A DNA stretch of 54,972 nucleotides from Patescibacteria group bacterium (GTDB taxonomy: Bacteria; Patescibacteriota; Minisyncoccia; Phycocordibacterales; JBHPGB01), in the NCBI GenBank assembly GCA_042571085.1, contig JBHPGB010000004.1:1-54972 (forward strand). Direction: 5' to 3'. Position numbers and translations under genes: made by a program. This document shows, in pieces, positions 284 through 48,464 of the stretch; the stretch's first letter is position 1; each line of letters opens with the position of its first letter. Below the pieces are notes generated by a model, which saw nothing but the letters and a program-made list of their open reading frames with translations, did not search any database and was not told the origin of the DNA.

Positions 284-976
284 ATGAAAAAATTTGAAGA
301 GTTTGCCGATAAGATCGGCGTGAAGTTTAATAATATAGATTTTCTACAACAGGCGTTTACTCACCGCTCATATATAAATGAAAATCCTGGAGTAAAAACA
401 GGTCACAACGAGCGTTTGGAATTTCTGGGGGATGCTGTGCTTGAGCTTGTGGTTACAGATTTTCTTTATGAAAAGTATCCTGATAAACCAGAAGGTGAGC
501 TTACTGCTTATCGTGCGGCGCTCGTGAATACAATAAGTATTTCTAGAGCAGCCACAGAGCTCGGCGCAAACGAATACCTACTTCTTTCAAAAGGAGAGGC
601 GAAGGATACAGGGAAAGCACGACAATATATTTTGGCGAATACATTTGAAGCAATCATTGGTGCTGTATATGTTGACCAAGGATATGATGCAGCACAGAAA
701 TTTATTGAAAATAGTCTTTTCCACTATATTGATGAGGTGATTGAGAATCGTTTGTGGCAGGATGCAAAAAGCTATTTCCAAGAGCAGGCGCAGGAACACG
801 TAAGTATCACACCAGCATACCAAGTGCTTGAAGAAGTTGGACCAGATCATGATAAACAATTCACAGTTGGCATATTTCTAAAAGATGAGCAGATAGCGAA
901 AGGGCAAGGTAGAAGCAAACAAGACGCAGAGCAAGCGGCAGCAAAGGCAGGGCTTGAGGCAAAGGGCTGGGAGTAG
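284..976 (+). CDS. rnc: Ribonuclease III
   Basis: RNase III signature HNERLEFLGDAVLEL, ANTFEAIIGAVYVD, and C-terminal dsRBD (GQGRSKQDAEQAAA). Confidence 0.97.
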   Translation: MKKFEEFADKIGVKFNNIDFLQQAFTHRSYINENPGVKTGHNERLEFLGDAVLELVVTDFLYEKYPDKPEGELTAYRAALVNTISISRAATELGANEYLLLSKGEAKDTGKARQYILANTFEAIIGAVYVDQGYDAAQKFIENSLFHYIDEVIENRLWQDAKSYFQEQAQEHVSITPAYQVLEEVGPDHDKQFTVGIFLKDEQIAKGQGRSKQDAEQAAAKAGLEAKGWE

Positions 977-1244: not shown

Positions 1245-1321
1245 AATATCTAAATAAACCCGCCTTTGGGCGGGTTTTTACTTTATACTACATATAAAAT
1301 ACGGTATAATACACATCAATC

Positions 1322-1447
1322 ATGTATCCCGTTAGAGATCCAACCTGTCTTTTGTGGCAATACGGGGGTTTGGTAAAATATTTAGACATAACAAGTTAAT
1401 CATTAACTAGGTACGGAAATTTTATTTCCTATCTCTAACGGGATGTA
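1322..1447 (+). mobile_element. Start-codon-associated ~120-bp inverted-repeat element, copy 1 (at smc)
   Basis: TIRs atcccgttagagat (1326-1339) and atctctaacgggat (1431-1444). ATGTA direct repeat at 1322-1326 and 1443-1447. Homologous to 11055-11179. Confidence 0.75.
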
Positions 1448-3695
1448 TCTCAAACGACTAGAAATTACAGGTTTTAAATCATTCGCAAAAAAGGGTGTGC
1501 TCGAATTTAGCGCACCTGTTTCTTCTATTGTAGGACCAAACGGGTCTGGAAAATCAAATGTTACTGAAGCAATGCGTTTTGTGCTCGGAGAGCAATCAAT
1601 GAAAAGTATGCGTGGAAAGCGTGGAGAAGATTTGATTTGGAATGGCTCTGGTAGTACAGGACGAAGCAATCACGCAAGCGTAATAATTACATTTGATAAC
1701 ACAAAGAAGGAATTTGATATTGATTATGATGAGGTTGCGATAAAGCGAGAAGTTTTTCGTGACGGAACCAATCAGTATTTTATAAATAATTCACAGGTGC
1801 GTCTTAAAGATGTTTTAGAGCTTTTGGCAAAAGTTCATATTGGTGCCACCGGACACCACATTATCTCACAAGGTGAAGCTGATAGGATTTTGAATGCAAA
1901 TATAAAAGAACGACGAACGATGATTGAAGAAGCATTGGGGCTTAAAGTGTACCAATGGAAAATTACTGAAAGTGATAAAAAACTGAATAAGACACAAGAA
2001 AATATAAAACAAGTGGAATCGTTGCGAAGAGAGATTGCGCCACATATTAAATTCTTAAGGAGACAGGTTGATAAGATTGAAAAGGCTAAAGAAATGCGTG
2101 ACGAACTGAAAGATTTATATGCCGAATATTTAAAAAGGGAAGAAGAGTATATTAAGGAAAGTAAGAATGCAATATCTGAAAAGAAAAGAGGGCCTGAGAG
2201 TGAGCTTAAGCGTATTGAGTCTGAGCTTGATAAGGCACGCAGCACACTTTCACAGTCCGACGATCATGATCCGCAGAAAGATGAATTAATGACACTAGAG
2301 AAGCAGATAAGTGACACACGCAACGAGAAAGATGAGCTTTCTCGCGAACTCGGTCGCATAGAAGGAATGATCGAATTTGAAGCACGTCGCATAGAAAAAG
2401 AGAAGGAAAAGAAAGCTATTGTTGAGCATGTTGACTACAATGAAGTGAAAGAGTTTTCTGAGACATTAGAAGATAAAATTAATACAGCTGAAAGGAGTCA
2501 AACAATTGAAGAAATGAAAGAAGCTTTTGTTTCATTGCGCAGTATGTTGCGTAGCTTCATTGATGGTATACAGGGAAAAGATTCAGGATCTAGCACTGAT
2601 GAGACGGAGCTGCTAAATCTGCAAAACAAAAAGAAAGATATCGCTGCGCAAATGAATAATGTTGAAGTGGGTGCACAAGAGTTTGAAGAGAAATACAACA
2701 TTCTTAAAAGAGAAATTGAAAAACAAAAAGATTCTTCTCGTGATCTTGAGCGAGCCGTGTTTGAGATGATGGCACAAAAAAGTGAACTTTCTGCACAGGT
2801 AAATATGTTGAGGAATGATGAGGATAATCTCAGTCGTCTTGAACACAGACTGAAAGAAGAGGTGCGCGAAGGGGTAGTGCTTGTGGGGCAAGACATTACC
2901 ATGTACGAAAATTTTGTTGTGTCACGCGAGGATGTGATGAGCGAAAACCGTGAAGTACAAGAAGAGCGTAGGAAAAAAATTGAAAAAATTAAAATAAAAC
3001 TTGAAGACGTCGGTGCTGGTGGAGGCGAGGATGTGATGAAAGAGTATGATGATATTGTACAGCGCGATGAGTTTTTGATGCGTGAAATTGAGGATTTGAA
3101 TGAGACAGAAGTGTCTTTGCGCGAATTGATAAATGATTTGAACGAAAAGCTTAATAATGAGTTTAAAGAAGGAATACAAAAAATAAATAAACAATTCCAA
3201 GAATTTTTTGCACTCATGTTTGGTGGTGGTTCTGCTTCTCTTAATGTTGTTGCACAGAAGAAGCGCCAAAGAAAAGATACTGAGATGCTACTTGATGATG
3301 CTGCAGCTATCGCTGCAATGGAAGAAGAAGCGGAAGAAGAAGAGGGAATTGAGATACAGGTTTCTTTGCCACGCAAAAAGATTAAAGGTTTGCAGATGCT
3401 TTCTGGTGGCGAGCGCGCACTTACTTCTATCGCACTTATTTTCGCTGTATCACAGGTGAATCCACCGCCATTCTTAGTGCTTGATGAAACAGATGCTGCG
3501 CTTGATGAGGCAAACTCACGCAAATATGGCGACATGCTTGAAAATCTTTCAAAGCACTCTCAGCTTATCGTTGTGACACACAACCGAGAAACAATGAGCC
3601 GCGCAGGTGTGCTTTATGGAGTAACAATGAACACAGATGCGGCTTCACAGCTACTTTCAGTGAAGTTTGATGAGGCAACATCGTACGCTAAATAA
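1443..3695 (+). CDS. smc: SMC-family chromosome segregation ATPase, short form (750 aa)
   Basis: N-terminal MYLKRLEITGFKSF, Walker A GPNGSGKS, signature LSGGE, Walker B/D-loop FLVLDETDAALD, long coiled coils. Confidence 0.9.
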   Translation: MYLKRLEITGFKSFAKKGVLEFSAPVSSIVGPNGSGKSNVTEAMRFVLGEQSMKSMRGKRGEDLIWNGSGSTGRSNHASVIITFDNTKKEFDIDYDEVAIKREVFRDGTNQYFINNSQVRLKDVLELLAKVHIGATGHHIISQGEADRILNANIKERRTMIEEALGLKVYQWKITESDKKLNKTQENIKQVESLRREIAPHIKFLRRQVDKIEKAKEMRDELKDLYAEYLKREEEYIKESKNAISEKKRGPESELKRIESELDKARSTLSQSDDHDPQKDELMTLEKQISDTRNEKDELSRELGRIEGMIEFEARRIEKEKEKKAIVEHVDYNEVKEFSETLEDKINTAERSQTIEEMKEAFVSLRSMLRSFIDGIQGKDSGSSTDETELLNLQNKKKDIAAQMNNVEVGAQEFEEKYNILKREIEKQKDSSRDLERAVFEMMAQKSELSAQVNMLRNDEDNLSRLEHRLKEEVREGVVLVGQDITMYENFVVSREDVMSENREVQEERRKKIEKIKIKLEDVGAGGGEDVMKEYDDIVQRDEFLMREIEDLNETEVSLRELINDLNEKLNNEFKEGIQKINKQFQEFFALMFGGGSASLNVVAQKKRQRKDTEMLLDDAAAIAAMEEEAEEEEGIEIQVSLPRKKIKGLQMLSGGERALTSIALIFAVSQVNPPPFLVLDETDAALDEANSRKYGDMLENLSKHSQLIVVTHNRETMSRAGVLYGVTMNTDAASQLLSVKFDEATSYAK

Positions 3696-9162: not shown

Positions 9163-10929
9163 ATGCAATCACAAGAAATCAGACAGAAATTTTTAGACTT
9201 TTTTGAAAAGCGTGGACACGCAATATTACCAAGCGCTTCACTTGTGCCGGAGAATGATCCTTCGGTGCTTTTTACTACCGCTGGTATGCAGCCACTAGTG
9301 CCATATTTGCTTGGAGAAGCACATCCTAAAGGTGAAATGCTTGCGAGTGTGCAGAAGTGTGTGCGTACTCAAGACATTGATGAAATTGGCGACAACACTC
9401 ACGATACTTTTTTTGAAATGCTTGGTAATTGGTCACTTGGATCATATTTTAAAAAAGAGGCTATTACTTGGAGTTATGAGTTTTTAACCAGTAAAGATGA
9501 GGGATTAAGACTCGATCCATCTAAGCTATACGTGACGGTGTTTGAAGGTAATGAAGATGCGCCACGAGACGAAGAGTCGTTTGAAATATGGAAGTCGCTC
9601 GGCGTGCCAGAGCACCGTATCTATTTCATGGATGCGAAATCAAATTGGTGGAGTCCGGGTGAAGACGGGCCATGCGGGCCAGATTCAGAAATGTTTTACG
9701 ATGTGACTGATAAAGGTTTGGGCGACATGACGAAAGAAGAGTTTATCGCAGCAGATGATAGACAAGACGTGGTGGAGATTTGGAATGATGTGTTTATGGA
9801 ATATGAAAAGAAAGAAGGAAAGGTAGTCGGCAAACTCGCGAAGCAGAATGTTGACACAGGTGCCGGGCTTGAGCGTCTTGTGATGGTAATGCAAGGGAAA
9901 AATAATATTTTTGACACTGATTTGTTTGAGGATTTAATTACACATATTCGCGAGCACGCATCAAATGAAAACATACGCGCAGAGAGAATTTTTGCGGATC
10001 ATATTCGCACAGCAACATTCATGATCGCTGATGGTGTGACTCCTTCAAACACAGATAGTGGATACATCCTACGTCGTCTTTTGCGCCGTGCTGTGCGATA
10101 TGGTGATGTACTCGGTATTTCAAAAGGAATACTTTTTGAGTTTGCAGGAATTGTGATTAAAAAATATGAGGCTGTTTATCCAAATCTTGGCAAGCAATCA
10201 TCTGTGATAGAAGAAGAGATAAGAAAAGAAGAAGTTAAATTTAGGGAAACGCTTGAGAAGGGAATGAAAGAGTTCGAAAAAATTTCACACGCAAATATTT
10301 CCGGCCGAGATGCTTTTGTACTCTTTAGTACGTACGGCTTTCCGTTTGAAATGACAGAAGAGCTTGCGGAAGAGCACGGCATATCTGTGAACGAAGATGA
10401 ATATAAAGCAGAAATGGAAAAACACCAAGAGCTTTCCCGCACAGCTTCAGCAGGTAAATTTAAAGGTGGAGTAGGAGGAGATTCTCCGGAGCAAAGAAAA
10501 TATCACACAGCTACACACTTATTACAGCAAGCGCTTCGCGATGTGCTTGGTAATCATGTGACTCAGAAGGGAAGTAATATAACAGACGAGCGGTTACGCT
10601 TTGATTTTACACATGGAGAAAAAATGAGTGCAGAAGAAAAAGTGCGTGTGGAAGATATTGTAAATGAAAAAATTAACGACGCCCTACCAATTTCATTTGA
10701 AGAAATGAGTGTTGATGAGGCGCGTGAGCTTGGTGCACTTGGTATATTTGATGATAAGTATGGTGACAAGGTAAAAGTGTATACAGTGGGCGAGAAAGAC
10801 GATGTGTATAGTAGGGAAATATGTGGCGGTCCGCACGTGGAAAATACAAGCGAGCTCGGTAAATTCAGAATTAAGAAAGAAGAAGCTAGTTCGGCGGGAG
10901 TTAGGCGAATAAAAGCAGTGCTTGAATAA
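9163..10929 (+). CDS. alaS: Alanine--tRNA ligase, short form (588 aa)
   Basis: LFTTAGMQP, HDTFFEMLGNWS, VDTGAGLERL; editing domain HTATH and CGGPH; ends SAGVRRIKAV. Confidence 0.96.
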   Translation: MQSQEIRQKFLDFFEKRGHAILPSASLVPENDPSVLFTTAGMQPLVPYLLGEAHPKGEMLASVQKCVRTQDIDEIGDNTHDTFFEMLGNWSLGSYFKKEAITWSYEFLTSKDEGLRLDPSKLYVTVFEGNEDAPRDEESFEIWKSLGVPEHRIYFMDAKSNWWSPGEDGPCGPDSEMFYDVTDKGLGDMTKEEFIAADDRQDVVEIWNDVFMEYEKKEGKVVGKLAKQNVDTGAGLERLVMVMQGKNNIFDTDLFEDLITHIREHASNENIRAERIFADHIRTATFMIADGVTPSNTDSGYILRRLLRRAVRYGDVLGISKGILFEFAGIVIKKYEAVYPNLGKQSSVIEEEIRKEEVKFRETLEKGMKEFEKISHANISGRDAFVLFSTYGFPFEMTEELAEEHGISVNEDEYKAEMEKHQELSRTASAGKFKGGVGGDSPEQRKYHTATHLLQQALRDVLGNHVTQKGSNITDERLRFDFTHGEKMSAEEKVRVEDIVNEKINDALPISFEEMSVDEARELGALGIFDDKYGDKVKVYTVGEKDDVYSREICGGPHVENTSELGKFRIKKEEASSAGVRRIKAVLE

Positions 10930-10998: not shown

Positions 10999-11054
10999 CC
11001 TTATTCCACATCCAACACTCTACATAAGACACACCATTTGCTATAATATATCTA

Positions 11055-11179
11055 ATGAATCCCGTTAGAGATCCAAACTGTTTTTTATGGCAATATGGAA
11101 TATAACGAGATTCTGATCGATGTTTTAACAAGATATAATCAGATACGGAAGATTTTCTTCCTATCTCTAACGGGATGAA
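11055..11179 (+). mobile_element. Start-codon-associated ~120-bp inverted-repeat element, copy 2
   Basis: TIRs atcccgttagagat (11059-11072) and atctctaacgggat (11163-11176). ATGAA direct repeat at 11055-11059 and 11175-11179. Confidence 0.75.
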
Positions 11180-12386
11180 GTTTTCGTTATTTTCACGTAA
11201 TAAAAAAGGTGAAGTCGTTATTGTGTATGATATTGGGTCCGCAAGTGTTGGTGCGGCCTTAGTTTTGCTTGGGAAAGATGAAAAACCAAAAATACTATAC
11301 TCAGTACGTAAAAATATGACCTTTCAAGAAAGATTGGATTTTACACGCTTTACAAAATCAATGACAGAAACAGTAAAACAAGTATCCTCTGATTTGCAAA
11401 AAAATGGTTTATCTCATTTAAAATTTACAAAATTTGGCACTATTTCTCCTGAAAAAATATATTGCACACTCGCGTCTCCTTGGTATGCTTCACAAACAAG
11501 AATTGTCCGAGTGAAAGAAGAGAAACCTTTCTTGATTACAAAAGAAAAAATAAAATCACTTGTAGAAAAAGAAGTAAAAGATTTCATAGATGTTGCAAAA
11601 AATGATAAGCGCATAGGTGGTGGACAAACAAAAATTATTGAACAGCGTGTCATGCAGACAAAGCTAAACGGATATGATACATCTGAGCCGTTTGATAAAA
11701 GAGCTAAAGCACTTGAGTTGTCTGCTATCATAAGTGTTGCACAAAGAGATATTTTAAATGATATAACAGACGCGATACATTCTGTATTTCTGACACCACG
11801 TATAGAATTCAATTCTTTTTCATACGTAGCCTTTGATTCTATTCGTGACATAAAACCAAATGCAAATAAATTCCTATTTTTAGATATAAGTGGAGAGCTT
11901 ACAGACGTGTCTTTGGTTAGGGATGGTGTAATCTTAGAAACAGGCTCTTTTCCGATGGGTAAGAATAGCATATTACGTGATGTCAAAATGGATATTAGTT
12001 CTAGTGAAGGAGAGGCTCTGTCTTTGATACAGATGTATCACAAAAACACATTGGAGAAAGTCCAGAGAGAAAAAATGAAAAAAGTTTTTCTGCAGATAGA
12101 GAAAAAATGGATTTCATTATTCAGAGATTCGCTATTGAAATTATCCGATACTCTTTCTATACCTAGTACAGTATTCTTTACATCAGACGAAAATATGGAA
12201 GATGTGTTTTCTGATCTGATACGAAAGGAAGAGTTTGGACAATTTACAATGACCGACGATGTTTTTTCTGTTGGTTCTGTAAATACCGCTTTTTTGACTA
12301 ACTTTGTTAAGTTTTCAAAAAATGCAGAAAGAGATCCATTTTTAACACTTGGCGCGCTATTTGCGGATAAGGTCCATAATGGATAG
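11175..12386 (+). CDS. Actin-fold (FtsA/PilM-like) protein of unknown function
   Basis: Two ASKHA-like motifs, YDIGSASVG and FLDISGELTDVSLVRDG...SFPMG. Confidence 0.6.
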   Translation: MKFSLFSRNKKGEVVIVYDIGSASVGAALVLLGKDEKPKILYSVRKNMTFQERLDFTRFTKSMTETVKQVSSDLQKNGLSHLKFTKFGTISPEKIYCTLASPWYASQTRIVRVKEEKPFLITKEKIKSLVEKEVKDFIDVAKNDKRIGGGQTKIIEQRVMQTKLNGYDTSEPFDKRAKALELSAIISVAQRDILNDITDAIHSVFLTPRIEFNSFSYVAFDSIRDIKPNANKFLFLDISGELTDVSLVRDGVILETGSFPMGKNSILRDVKMDISSSEGEALSLIQMYHKNTLEKVQREKMKKVFLQIEKKWISLFRDSLLKLSDTLSIPSTVFFTSDENMEDVFSDLIRKEEFGQFTMTDDVFSVGSVNTAFLTNFVKFSKNAERDPFLTLGALFADKVHNG

Positions 12387-14079: not shown

Positions 14080-14155
14080 AGGGGTGTGGCGCAATTGGTA
14101 GCGCACCGGTTTCCAAAACCGTAGGTTGCAAGTTCAAGTCTTGTCACCCCTGCCA
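14080..14155 (+). tRNA. trnW: tRNA-Trp (CCA)
   Basis: Acceptor AGGGGTG/CACCCCT, D arm gcgc-aattggta-gcgc, anticodon loop TTCCAAA, T loop TTCAAGT, encoded 3' CCA. C27-U43 mismatch. Confidence 0.93.
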
Positions 14156-14250
14156 CGTCGCTCGAGAGCGACGTGGCCTGCCACTCTGTTTTCAGACTTT
14201 AGTCTGAAAACAGCACCGCAGCCAAAGGCTGCGACTAAGTAGGCCACGTC
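14152..14250 (+). repeat. Multi-hairpin cassette between tRNA-Trp and the GIY-YIG gene
   Basis: Hairpins at 14152-14177, 14186-14213 and 14217-14233. Alternative 10-bp pairing 14170-14179 with 14241-14250. Confidence 0.75.
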
Positions 14251-14275: not shown

Positions 14276-14536
14276 ATGCACTACGTCTACATCCTAAAAT
14301 CTCAAAAAACCGAAAACTGGTTTTACAAAGGATCAGCTGGAGATTTGAAAAGGCGAGTAGCACAACACAGCTCTGGAGAAGTTGATGCGACCAGACCGCA
14401 TTTGCCAGTAGAATTAGTTTATTACGAAGCATATGTATCTGAGAAAGCTGCTCGGGATAGGGAACAGAGCATCAAAAAAAGCGGTTCTGTATGGAAACCG
14501 CTAATGGACAGAATTAAATCAAGTTTGGATGAGTAA
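14276..14536 (+). CDS. Small GIY-YIG nuclease (UPF0213/SLX1-like)
   Basis: HYVYILKS...FYKGSAGDLKRRVAQH...LVYYEAY...ARDREQSIK. Confidence 0.88.
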   Translation: MHYVYILKSQKTENWFYKGSAGDLKRRVAQHSSGEVDATRPHLPVELVYYEAYVSEKAARDREQSIKKSGSVWKPLMDRIKSSLDE

Positions 14537-22480: not shown

Positions 22481-22532
22481 AAAAAACTGCCAATCTAGGC
22501 AGTTTTTTGTTATTATTTATGGATTATGAAAA
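22481..22532 (+). repeat. 52-bp terminator-plus-start module, copy 1
   Basis: aaaaaactgccaatctaggcagttttttgttattatttatggattATGAAAA, 49/52 identical to 24013-24064. Confidence 0.8.
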
Positions 22533-24012: not shown

Positions 24013-24064
24013 AAAAAACTGCCAATTCAGGCGGTTTTTTGTTATTATTTATGGATTATGAAAA
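24013..24064 (+). repeat. 52-bp terminator-plus-start module, copy 2
   Basis: Near-identical to 22481-22532. Confidence 0.8.
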
Positions 24065-48056: not shown

Positions 48057-48464
48057 ATGTCAGATTTATATCAACAACACATTTTAGACCATTATAGAAA
48101 TCCGCGGAATAAGCGGGAGATTTTTGATGCAGATGTGATTGAGCGAGGAAAGAATGCGAGTTGTGGAGATGATCTCACGCTATATTTGAAATTTACCGTT
48201 AGAACTGACGGGTCTATAGACCATACTTCTAACGGCACAGGTGATGGGGAAGTAGTGGAAGATGTGGCTTTTGGTGGAGATGGTTGTGCTATTTCAACTG
48301 CTGCAGCATCACTGCTCACAGAAAAAATAAAAGGAATGAAAAAAGAAGAAATACGATTGCTCACACCCGCTGATATTTATGATATGCTCGGTGTACCGAT
48401 AAGTGCTGGGCGGTCACGTTGCGCATTACTTGCGTACGAAGCGATTGAACGAGGGCTCAAATAA
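48057..48464 (+). CDS. sufU: SufU/IscU-type sulfur-transfer scaffold
   Basis: LYQQHILDHYRNPRN, NASCGD, GCAISTAAAS, RSRCA. ATG at 48057. Confidence 0.9.
   Translation: MSDLYQQHILDHYRNPRNKREIFDADVIERGKNASCGDDLTLYLKFTVRTDGSIDHTSNGTGDGEVVEDVAFGGDGCAISTAAASLLTEKIKGMKKEEIRLLTPADIYDMLGVPISAGRSRCALLAYEAIERGLK

Follow-up and report, generated by a model that had tools for sequence, protein, structure and literature searches.

Why do two genes on a single Patescibacteria contig carry the same short insert exactly at their start codons, and what is this insert? The contig (GenBank JBHPGB010000004.1, assembly GCA_042571085.1) was analysed over a stretch of 54,972 nt, hereafter the window, which is numbered on the forward strand; L-numbers denote loci from our collection scans. 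One of the two genes is smc, and the other is an open reading frame (ORF) of 403 codons. A preliminary description, made from the letters of the window, had proposed either a start-codon-targeting MITE (miniature inverted-repeat transposable element) or an RNA element that is processed or gates translation. Our results indicate that the inserts are very probably non-autonomous, internally deleted copies of a 280-bp mobile element, the only gene of which encodes an 86-aa GIY-YIG nuclease. The two copies comprise the following features:

1327..1443, + strand: copy 1, a non-autonomous element of 117 nt that interrupts the smc start codon (from sequence, covariance model and alignment)
1322-1324, + strand: left ATG of copy 1 (from sequence)
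1323..1326, + strand: left target duplication TGTA, which with A1322 forms the original ATG
1322-1399, + strand: junk ORF of 25 codons opened by the original ATG
1327..1339, + strand: left arm TCCCGTTAGAGAT, which in full-length copies codes for PVRD of an N-terminal extension
1415..1429, + strand: hairpin GGAAAT-TTT-ATTTCC, with the conserved AC before it and a spacer T after it; fused halves of the parent's internal inverted repeat
1431..1443, + strand: right arm ATCTCTAACGGGA, ending in the A of the smc ATG; it codes in full-length copies for the nuclease C-terminus LSLTG
1444..1447, + strand: right target duplication TGTA, which with A1443 forms the working smc start codon
1443-3695, + strand: smc ORF, ATG at 1443-1445; its SMC_N match begins at residue 2
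1282..1310, + strand: promoter-like site TTTATA-17-TATAAT, score 10/12
11060..11175, + strand: copy 2, a non-autonomous element of 116 nt that interrupts the start codon of the 403-aa ORF (from sequence and alignment to full-length elements)
11055-11057, + strand: left ATG of copy 2 (from sequence)
11056..11059, + strand: left duplication TGAA, which with A11055 forms the original ATG
11055-11105, + strand: junk ORF of 16 codons opened by the original ATG
11060-11072 and 11163-11175, + strand: arms of copy 2 (from sequence)
11147..11161, + strand: hairpin GGAAGA-TTT-TCTTCC, which differs from that of copy 1 by two compensatory changes
11176..11179, + strand: right duplication TGAA, which with A11175 forms the rebuilt host ATG (11175-11177)
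11175-12386, + strand: host ORF of 403 aa, no Pfam match
11019..11047, + strand: promoter-like site TCTACA-17-TATAAT with TG ahead of the −10 box, score 10/12, 7 nt 5′ of the first ATG

The anatomy of the two copies was established directly: both have exact 13-nt inverted arms, a 4-bp target duplication and a terminal A that rebuilds the host ATG. The preliminary description had reported two ~120-bp inserts of one element, and all of its points were present in the sequence, including the diverged interiors (the copies resemble each other over the left 40 nt and the right 35 nt, and their middles differ) and the promoter boxes, which correspond to the promoter-like sites ending at 1310 and 11047. 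Two of its details can be stated more exactly. The terminal inverted repeats are exact, but the real arm measures 13 nt rather than 14, the fourteenth base belonging to the duplication; likewise, the direct repeat is real, but only 4 of its supposed 5 nt are duplicated host sequence, the right-hand A being supplied by the element's own end. Chance can be excluded: exact arm matches numbered four in the window, all of them in the two copies, a count that no shuffle equalled. A covariance model built from 106 copies recovered copy 1 (70.2 bits, E = 3e-14) and copy 2 (74.9 bits, E = 3e-15) and nothing more in the window below E = 0.1, and the predicted folds of the two copies had z-scores of −3.8 and −5.9. 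A short palindrome at 48194-48237 matched the model weakly in either direction, with 16 and 14 bits on the two strands (E = 0.2-0.5), and is probably unrelated to the element. Since promoter-like sites stand upstream of the first ATG in both cases, the inserts would belong to the transcript; the site at 1282..1310 would start it at or near the first ATG, so that the insert would form a leader. Upstream of the gene starts in the window (GC 37%), Shine-Dalgarno motifs were not seen, and many genes have TATAAT-N6-9-ATG boxes, for example alaS at 9163; boxes at such a distance imply widespread leaderless mRNAs in this genome.

To place the inserts in a family, two scans of sequence collections were carried out, one covering a single genome per species with both arms as the pattern, and the other covering metagenomes with only the 6 terminal nt fixed (ATGAATCCCGT...ACGGGATGAA). 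Each scan gave at least 120 matches; copy counts below are those among the matches listed, and the patterns favour short forms and, in the second scan, also ATGAA sites. The element family is very large. Copies with T...A ends were found in Patescibacteria in the first scan and copies with C...G ends in Omnitrophota, Planctomycetota, Elusimicrobia, Ratteibacteria, Ignavibacteria and one Clostridia bin, the terminal arm pair covarying perfectly (UA 59, CG 47). Altogether 125 copies were oriented by their hairpin. Among the 66 T-ended copies listed, the junction ATG opened an ORF of at least 60 aa at the hairpin end in 52 and at the other end in 5, which places 57 of 66 exactly on a start codon, as the preliminary description had anticipated for a MITE-like family. 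If insertion were equally likely, and equally tolerated, at any ATG lying outside long ORFs, about 10% would be expected (p about 1e-47); the start-codon rule is established. The duplication was the same on both sides in 44 of these 66 copies (TGAA 26, TGGA 5, TGAG 3, TGTA 3), and identical two-sided duplications of varied sequence were also present in 26 of 56 copies outside the window. The base 5′ of the left duplication was A in 51 of the 66. At its fourth position the duplication has an A in 90% of copies, compared with 52% of gene starts, so that a T-N-N-A target preference exists as well.

The host genes are unrelated housekeeping genes. They comprise 101 Pfam families in 60 proteins and include SMC three times, BipA/LepA, PheT, MurA, tRNA synthetases and SecA. 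BipA carries copies in two genomes, with unrelated interiors and opposite orientations; across the family, members have in common the terminal repeat and the duplication, and interiors are unrelated between hosts. A −10-like box stands 6-8 nt before the first ATG, a leaderless arrangement, in about 21 of 52 copies. Of the 52 copies, 18 lie at operon-internal starts, which means that the target is the start codon, and targeting of transcription starts was rejected on this ground. Examples are a copy at the rpsH start, 4 nt past the rpsN stop, and copies at ATGA overlaps, where the upstream stop codon is preserved by the duplicated TGAG. A regulon or riboswitch was rejected because the host genes are unrelated and Rfam gave no match (in Rfam 15, none at the gathering score and chance-level matches only, with E above 0.5). 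A promoter inside the element was rejected as well, no TAnnnT lying at a fixed distance from the host ATG and the boxes standing 6-8 nt before the first ATG. A conserved leader peptide was discarded, as the first-ATG ORF consists of MxPVRD plus an unconserved tail of 6-42 aa, the wreck of a nuclease N-terminus, and guide-RNA-type targeting was discarded because the interiors complement the flanks no more than composition predicts. Elements beside tRNA genes were looked for and none was found. A search of 2.9 million viral contigs gave no copy, and carriage by phages was rejected accordingly.

Copies with C/G ends also lie within about 20 nt of gene starts, in several registers, and those on a start codon rebuild GTG. 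In one subgroup of them (13 loci, e.g., L025, L051 and L085), the left flank (C/T)TTG is conserved and the right flank is a non-matching TAAA/TGAA; TTG-CCC-CGT-TAG would there form a three-codon ORF ending inside the arm. Some copies of this subgroup have GGAGG motifs further to the left. We considered whether GGAGG might serve some C/G-ended copies as a Shine-Dalgarno sequence brought to the start by the helix; at least one of these motifs, that in L086, is a neighbouring copy's decayed right arm. A third arm type, TCCCGTAGTAGAAAAT / ATTTTTCACTACGGGA, was observed in L004 (6023-6154), L105 and L195 (2780-3230), and has only the terminal TCCCGT in common with the main family.

The arms and the hairpin were then compared across copies. 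The outer 10 nt of the arms are invariant, and TCCCGTTAGA is conserved in the arms from the metagenome scan. Positions 11-13 vary and covary (position 12: AT 60, GC 42, CG 7, TA 4), and pairing ends sharply at position 13. With only the 6 terminal nt fixed, a perfect stem of 13 bp or more was present in 93 of 121 metagenome copies, and variant arms in the first set were fully compensated in 7 of 9 cases, those copies also lying on start codons. Because the variable arm positions still match their partners, the helix itself is under selection, and not only a protein-binding sequence. Folding predicts the arm helix for 43 of 43 leaders, at a duplex energy of about −21 kcal/mol and with the A and U of the host AUG engaged in pairing. 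A hairpin abuts one arm in 88 of 122 copies compared with 9 of 122 shuffled ones and is built from 64 different stems, preceded by AC and followed by a single T. All seven of its pairs covary, with a covariation score that 0 of 500 shuffles reached. The earlier proposal that this hairpin is a selected structure therefore stands as to covariation, but the hairpin is a remnant of the parent's long-range inverted repeat and not a free-standing RNA motif.

The mobility of the element is shown in part by the smc locus itself. A contig of a related strain (run X2) links window position 1308 to 1473 by 39 nt that read TATACT, 7 nt, ATG TAT CTA AAA...; the site is empty, with ATGTA present once and the insert absent. 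This is the promoter-ATG arrangement that the preliminary description had envisaged for a locus lacking the insert. One Wolfebacteria contig has two copies, at loci separated by 3.4 kb, that agree at 118 of 121 positions. The empty smc site and the near-identical copies at two loci together indicate that the element moves, and the 116-120-nt forms still do so. In addition, two or three different members were found in tandem on one start codon, separated by single TGAA repeats, which implies repeated hits on one site; such arrays lie at these loci:

L004, 5898-6279: tandem array
L105, 1446-1710: tandem array
L098, 3369-3617: tandem array
L134 and L195: tandem arrays

In the source sample, summed word depth over the element was 100-1000x that of its flanks.

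The parent of the short copies was recognised in L110, where the arm-to-arm stretch (about 278-279 bp) holds an ORF starting MFYTYILKSEKDGGWYTG... An iterated profile search (jackhmmer) of all six-frame ORFs of the loci gave 14 such ORFs. Pfam GIY-YIG (PF01541) matched 5 of 5 tested ORFs at 41.7-61.4 bits (cut-off 22.6), the arm-flanked ones scoring 57-61 bits. Longer elements with the arms of the window copies, which the preliminary description had suggested looking for, thus exist and enclose one 86-aa GIY-YIG nuclease gene. The loci concerned are as follows:

L110, L001, L005, L195, L019, L134: arm-flanked GIY-YIG ORFs
L241, L244, L245, L247: full-length elements, each exactly 280 bp long and bearing the window's arms
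L248: full-length element with a variant right arm, taken as 280 bp

The full element consists of 13-nt inverted arms, (T/C)CCCGTTAGAnnn, and a single nuclease gene that fills almost the whole of it, flanked by a 4-bp T-N-N-A target duplication that is usually TGAA; those seen around full-length elements were TGAA, TGAG or TAA. At 4 of 5 loci (L241, L244, L245 and L248) the start of the host gene lies 4 nt ahead of the nuclease stop (ATGA), and in L248 the upstream gene also overlaps the captured ATG. No other transposase was found between arms in ~1.6 Mb of loci, where the sole long arm-to-arm pairs were one GIY-YIG element and mismatched arms. Clustering of all locus ORFs gave housekeeping clusters only and no recurrent transposase. 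The third arm type, TCCYGTAGTAGAAwwT, has a full-length GIY-YIG member of its own in L195, the ORF of which is broken at ~2950-3060 by two GC-rich palindromes (AACCACGGC...GCCGTGG), which look like a still smaller palindromic insert nested in the nuclease gene.

The short form descends from this 280-bp element by a single internal deletion. In full-length elements, up to 15 nt coding for RKRLKQ (position 93) exactly complement the 15 nt before the right arm, which code for RLRRFL. When the short copies, including those of the window, are aligned to the full element, one gap of ~160 nt is needed, and it falls between the two repeat halves. Read from this alignment, the window copies correspond to the full element minus ~160 nt between the halves of its internal inverted repeat, which pairs the LRKRLK-coding sequence with the RLRRFL-coding one, giving the 116-120-nt form. 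As the gap falls between the halves, the covarying hairpin is explained as the two halves joined. The same descent explains the typical length of 116-120 nt, the conserved AC (from TTA CGG) and the 10-fold excess of CGGG in the left interior of short copies (the Y-T-G codons of the old ORF), and GTTATGT, the old nuclease start, is still visible in some of them.

At least 1144 clusters of close homologues of the nuclease were found in a protein database and fall into an 86-aa and a 95-aa class. The latter starts with MxPVR(D/V)xxVM, for example MNPVRDYIVM-FYTY..., an N-terminus that reads as the host ATG, the arm (PVRD), three codons and the nuclease's own Met. The C-terminus FL(S/T)xTG, encoded by the right arm, is present in 108 of 120 homologues, and the catalytic-motif positions Y..Y, YTG, R, HN and YYE are invariant in all 120 (median identity 72%). 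The closest solved sequences were UPF0213 BH0048 (PDB 1zg2; E = 1.4e-8) and SLX1 (E = 0.007), and the nuclease is a GIY-YIG of the UPF0213/Slx1-like kind.

The preliminary description had found no cognate transposase in the window. This needs qualification, as a related gene is present, although it has no arms:

14276..14536, + strand: free-standing GIY-YIG gene, 86 aa; jackhmmer E = 1.5e-29, Pfam GIY-YIG 41.7 bits against a cut-off of 22.6

Its product is 43% identical to the arm-flanked nuclease P0033, and it may act in trans. The gene lies directly 3′ of a tRNA (14080-14152), with three GC-rich hairpins between them at about 14152-14232, and the next ORF starts 15 nt past its stop. Armless GIY-YIG genes next to tRNA genes were also observed in L115, L004 and L174; they may represent a second, tRNA-associated branch of the same nuclease family.

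These data allow us to propose how the element exploits its site. In Patescibacteria, it inserts right after the A of a host ATG, so that the host promoter and start codon would drive the nuclease ORF, either in frame with the host ATG (MNPVRD-xxx-M...) or from its own ATG 9 nt past the arm. The ORF passes through the right arm, which codes for the C-terminus FL(S/T)LTG, and stops on a TGA or TAA from the duplicated target; the last base of the element, A (G in other phyla), together with the duplicated TG rebuilds the host start codon. Since nuclease stop and host start overlap (ATGA), the host gene could be translated by termination-reinitiation coupling. We infer with good support that the element relies on the host promoter and start codon for expression of its nuclease and returns a start codon that allows coupled translation; such host-start-dependent expression would explain the site, the orientation bias of 52 to 5 and the preference for duplications that contain TGA. 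The window inserts would be transcribed from the promoters of smc and of the neighbouring gene, the first AUG opening a short junk ORF and the arms pairing over the A and U of the real AUG; a ribosome that started at the first AUG may melt the arm helix and thereby allow reinitiation at the real AUG. The GIY-YIG nuclease itself may be the mobilising enzyme, and its substrate may be the arm helix extruded as a hairpin or cruciform DNA, as in an SLX1-like reaction.

Several observations weigh against this interpretation. A full-length arm-flanked copy was found neither in the window nor in the source sample at an identity of at least 80%, where matches covered the arm and hairpin only, and the window's own GIY-YIG gene lacks arms. 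An obvious DNA-binding module is missing from the 86-aa GIY-YIG domain. Short 3′ overhangs, as left by known enzymes of this type, would not obviously give a 4-bp duplication. Counts of G.U versus A.C pairs gave no clear sign of RNA over DNA for the arm helix. Finally, C/G-ended copies on start codons mostly have the opposite orientation (10 versus 2), which the argument from expression does not explain.

Three other explanations were weighed. The best of them, which we nevertheless regard as unlikely, is spread as a homing endonuclease gene: a nuclease would cut ATGNA-type sites and repair would copy the element through a 4-5-nt microhomology (ATGAA), leaving only an apparent duplication. It would fit the fact that the sole protein is a GIY-YIG, the fold of free-standing and intron-borne homing endonucleases; that every copy is flanked by a like short repeat, with tandem arrays sharing one TGAA; and that orientation is fixed relative to an asymmetric target. 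However, arms of strict complementarity play no part in simple break-copy repair, the element has an exact length of 280 bp, and the duplication varies (TGAA, TGGA, TGTA, TGAG, TAAA) while always matching its own target, as in staggered-cut insertion.

It appears more doubtful still that the inserts are cis-regulatory leaders selected by the host, in which the helix and hairpin are cut by RNase III or gate the AUG of leaderless core-gene mRNAs. An AUG-pairing helix is predicted in ~40 of 43 leaders at about −21 kcal/mol, the helix and hairpin extend over ~21-22 bp, the orientation bias is 52 to 5, and the Correia elements of Neisseria are cut by RNase III. The RNase III gene of the window (284-976) lies directly upstream of smc (1443-3695). 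As rnc beside smc is a common synteny, this neighbourhood probably reflects that arrangement and not a link to the insert. Against a leader selected by the host, the downstream genes have no common function, the site is empty in a close relative, Rfam has no match, the conserved features are accounted for by descent from the nuclease element, and neither RNA processing nor gating is required to explain the presence of the element. Least probable of all is that the short copies are MITEs of a conventional DDE-type insertion sequence, such as an IS1380/piggyBac-like one, with the GIY-YIG ORF as a passenger, for although the arms start with CCC, the duplication is a 4-bp T-N-N-A and the outer 10 nt of the arms are invariant, as recognition by a protein would predict, no other transposase lies between arms in the ~1.6 Mb, the GIY-YIG ORF fills the element to the base with both ORF ends encoded by the arms, the length is fixed at 280 bp, and taking one internal segment out of the long form gives exactly the short one.

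The 280-bp element and its short copies were also compared with known systems. By analogy, they would work most like REPIN-RAYT pairs, in which a small single gene flanked by palindromic ends likewise occurs together with many short gene-less hairpin copies and the pairing of the ends is conserved. In contrast to RAYT, an IS200-like tyrosine transposase, the domain here is GIY-YIG and not HUH/Y1; furthermore, there is a 4-bp target duplication, copies lie on start codons and not in extragenic positions, and the gene is partly encoded by the end repeat. Some resemblance to free-standing GIY-YIG homing genes (T4 seg; I-TevI in group I introns) would follow from the same catalytic fold and from a small selfish ORF being wedged between, and co-transcribed with, host genes. 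Those genes have one cognate allele, a separate DNA-binding domain and neither inverted ends nor duplication, whereas the present element has arms, duplications, hundreds of unrelated sites and only 86 aa; of what marks a homing gene, a catalytic domain with conserved residues was found, and armless mobility at a single allele was not. Correia (nemis), ERIC, RUP and Nezha elements are similar in being ~100-150 nt long and non-autonomous, with inverted ends, a long transcript hairpin and frequent location in 5′ leaders. Correia elements, however, have a TA duplication, a 26-bp terminal repeat, no known parent and no start-codon precision, unlike our element with its different 13-nt arms, 4-bp T-N-N-A duplication, identified parent and rebuilt start codon. 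As in plant Stowaway and Tourist elements, what members have in common is limited to the terminal repeat and the duplication, and different hosts have unrelated interiors, but those elements are eukaryotic, depend on DDE (mariner or PIF) transposases and have an end repeat without a coding role. Inteins, self-splicing introns and Rickettsia palindromic elements likewise make insertion into essential genes tolerable by restoring host function, which here happens at translation initiation (duplicated start, ATGA) rather than by splicing or in-frame tolerance. An arm-helix substrate would be in keeping with SLX1, an enzyme that cuts branched and stem-loop DNA, but UPF0213 and SLX1 are single-copy cellular proteins without arms.

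With regard to classification, the short copies have the inverted repeats, the varying target duplication, the presence/absence polymorphism together with multiple copies, and the longer coding parent that characterise MITEs. As to a classical insertion sequence, the only ORF between the arms is the GIY-YIG gene, and no DDE, DEDD, HUH, serine or tyrosine transposase was found there. The ends (CCC...) and the 4-bp duplication are features that we take to resemble IS1380/piggyBac-like elements; assignment to that group was rejected because no such transposase was found between the arms. An integron attC site was rejected too, since GTTAGAG at the 5′ arm and CTCTAAC at the 3′ arm are the reverse of RYYYAAC...GTTRRRY and the hosts are core genes. 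To our knowledge, no insertion-sequence family uses a GIY-YIG enzyme. No published description of such an element was found in open-access full text, and an earlier one may exist. On balance, we favour the view that this is a new class of prokaryotic transposable element and the smallest autonomous one (280 bp), with an 86-aa nuclease encoded in part by its arms, which borrows and returns start codons and has left thousands of 117-nt derivatives at core-gene start codons across Patescibacteria, Omnitrophota and other phyla. GIY-YIG genes are among those exchanged by Patescibacteria, with frequent exchange with Omnitrophota (PMC12455944).

Two further observations were made. In L110 (1500-3470) and L069, from a Ratteibacteria metagenome-assembled genome, three neighbouring pseudopilin genes have C/G-ended copies at their prepilin cleavage site, G|FT. 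A full-length element there forms an in-frame fusion, the nuclease ending ...KRFLSLTG and the pilin continuing FTFLEISLV, and prepilin peptidase could separate the two; a short copy read through in frame makes the leader 43 aa longer, and the left arm plus flank reads GFTPLEI, like the pilin motif. Secondly, the window contains a nearly identical 45-nt module at about 22481-22525 and 24013-24057, before two different ATGAAA genes. It consists of a terminator-like hairpin, AAAAAACTGCC..GGCAGTTTTTT, followed by TTATTATTTATGGATT, and is a repeated intergenic cassette.

If the GIY-YIG protein does mobilise the element, it would add a new enzyme class beside DDE, DEDD, HUH, serine, tyrosine and Cas1 enzymes, and the minimum size of an autonomous mobile element would shift downwards; as a very small enzyme acting on structured DNA, the nuclease would also be a possible tool. 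For annotation, gene callers split these loci into an 86- or 95-aa "GIY-YIG nuclease family protein" and may misplace the starts of host genes. The finding bears on translation in leaderless organisms that lack Shine-Dalgarno sequences, in which core genes like smc stand behind a predicted helix of about −21 kcal/mol, and it offers a testable system for termination-reinitiation without such sequences. If our interpretation is correct, occupying a start codon and giving one back would represent a new route by which a parasite becomes harmless to its host, and would explain how ultra-compact genomes with almost no spacer DNA can hold many mobile elements.

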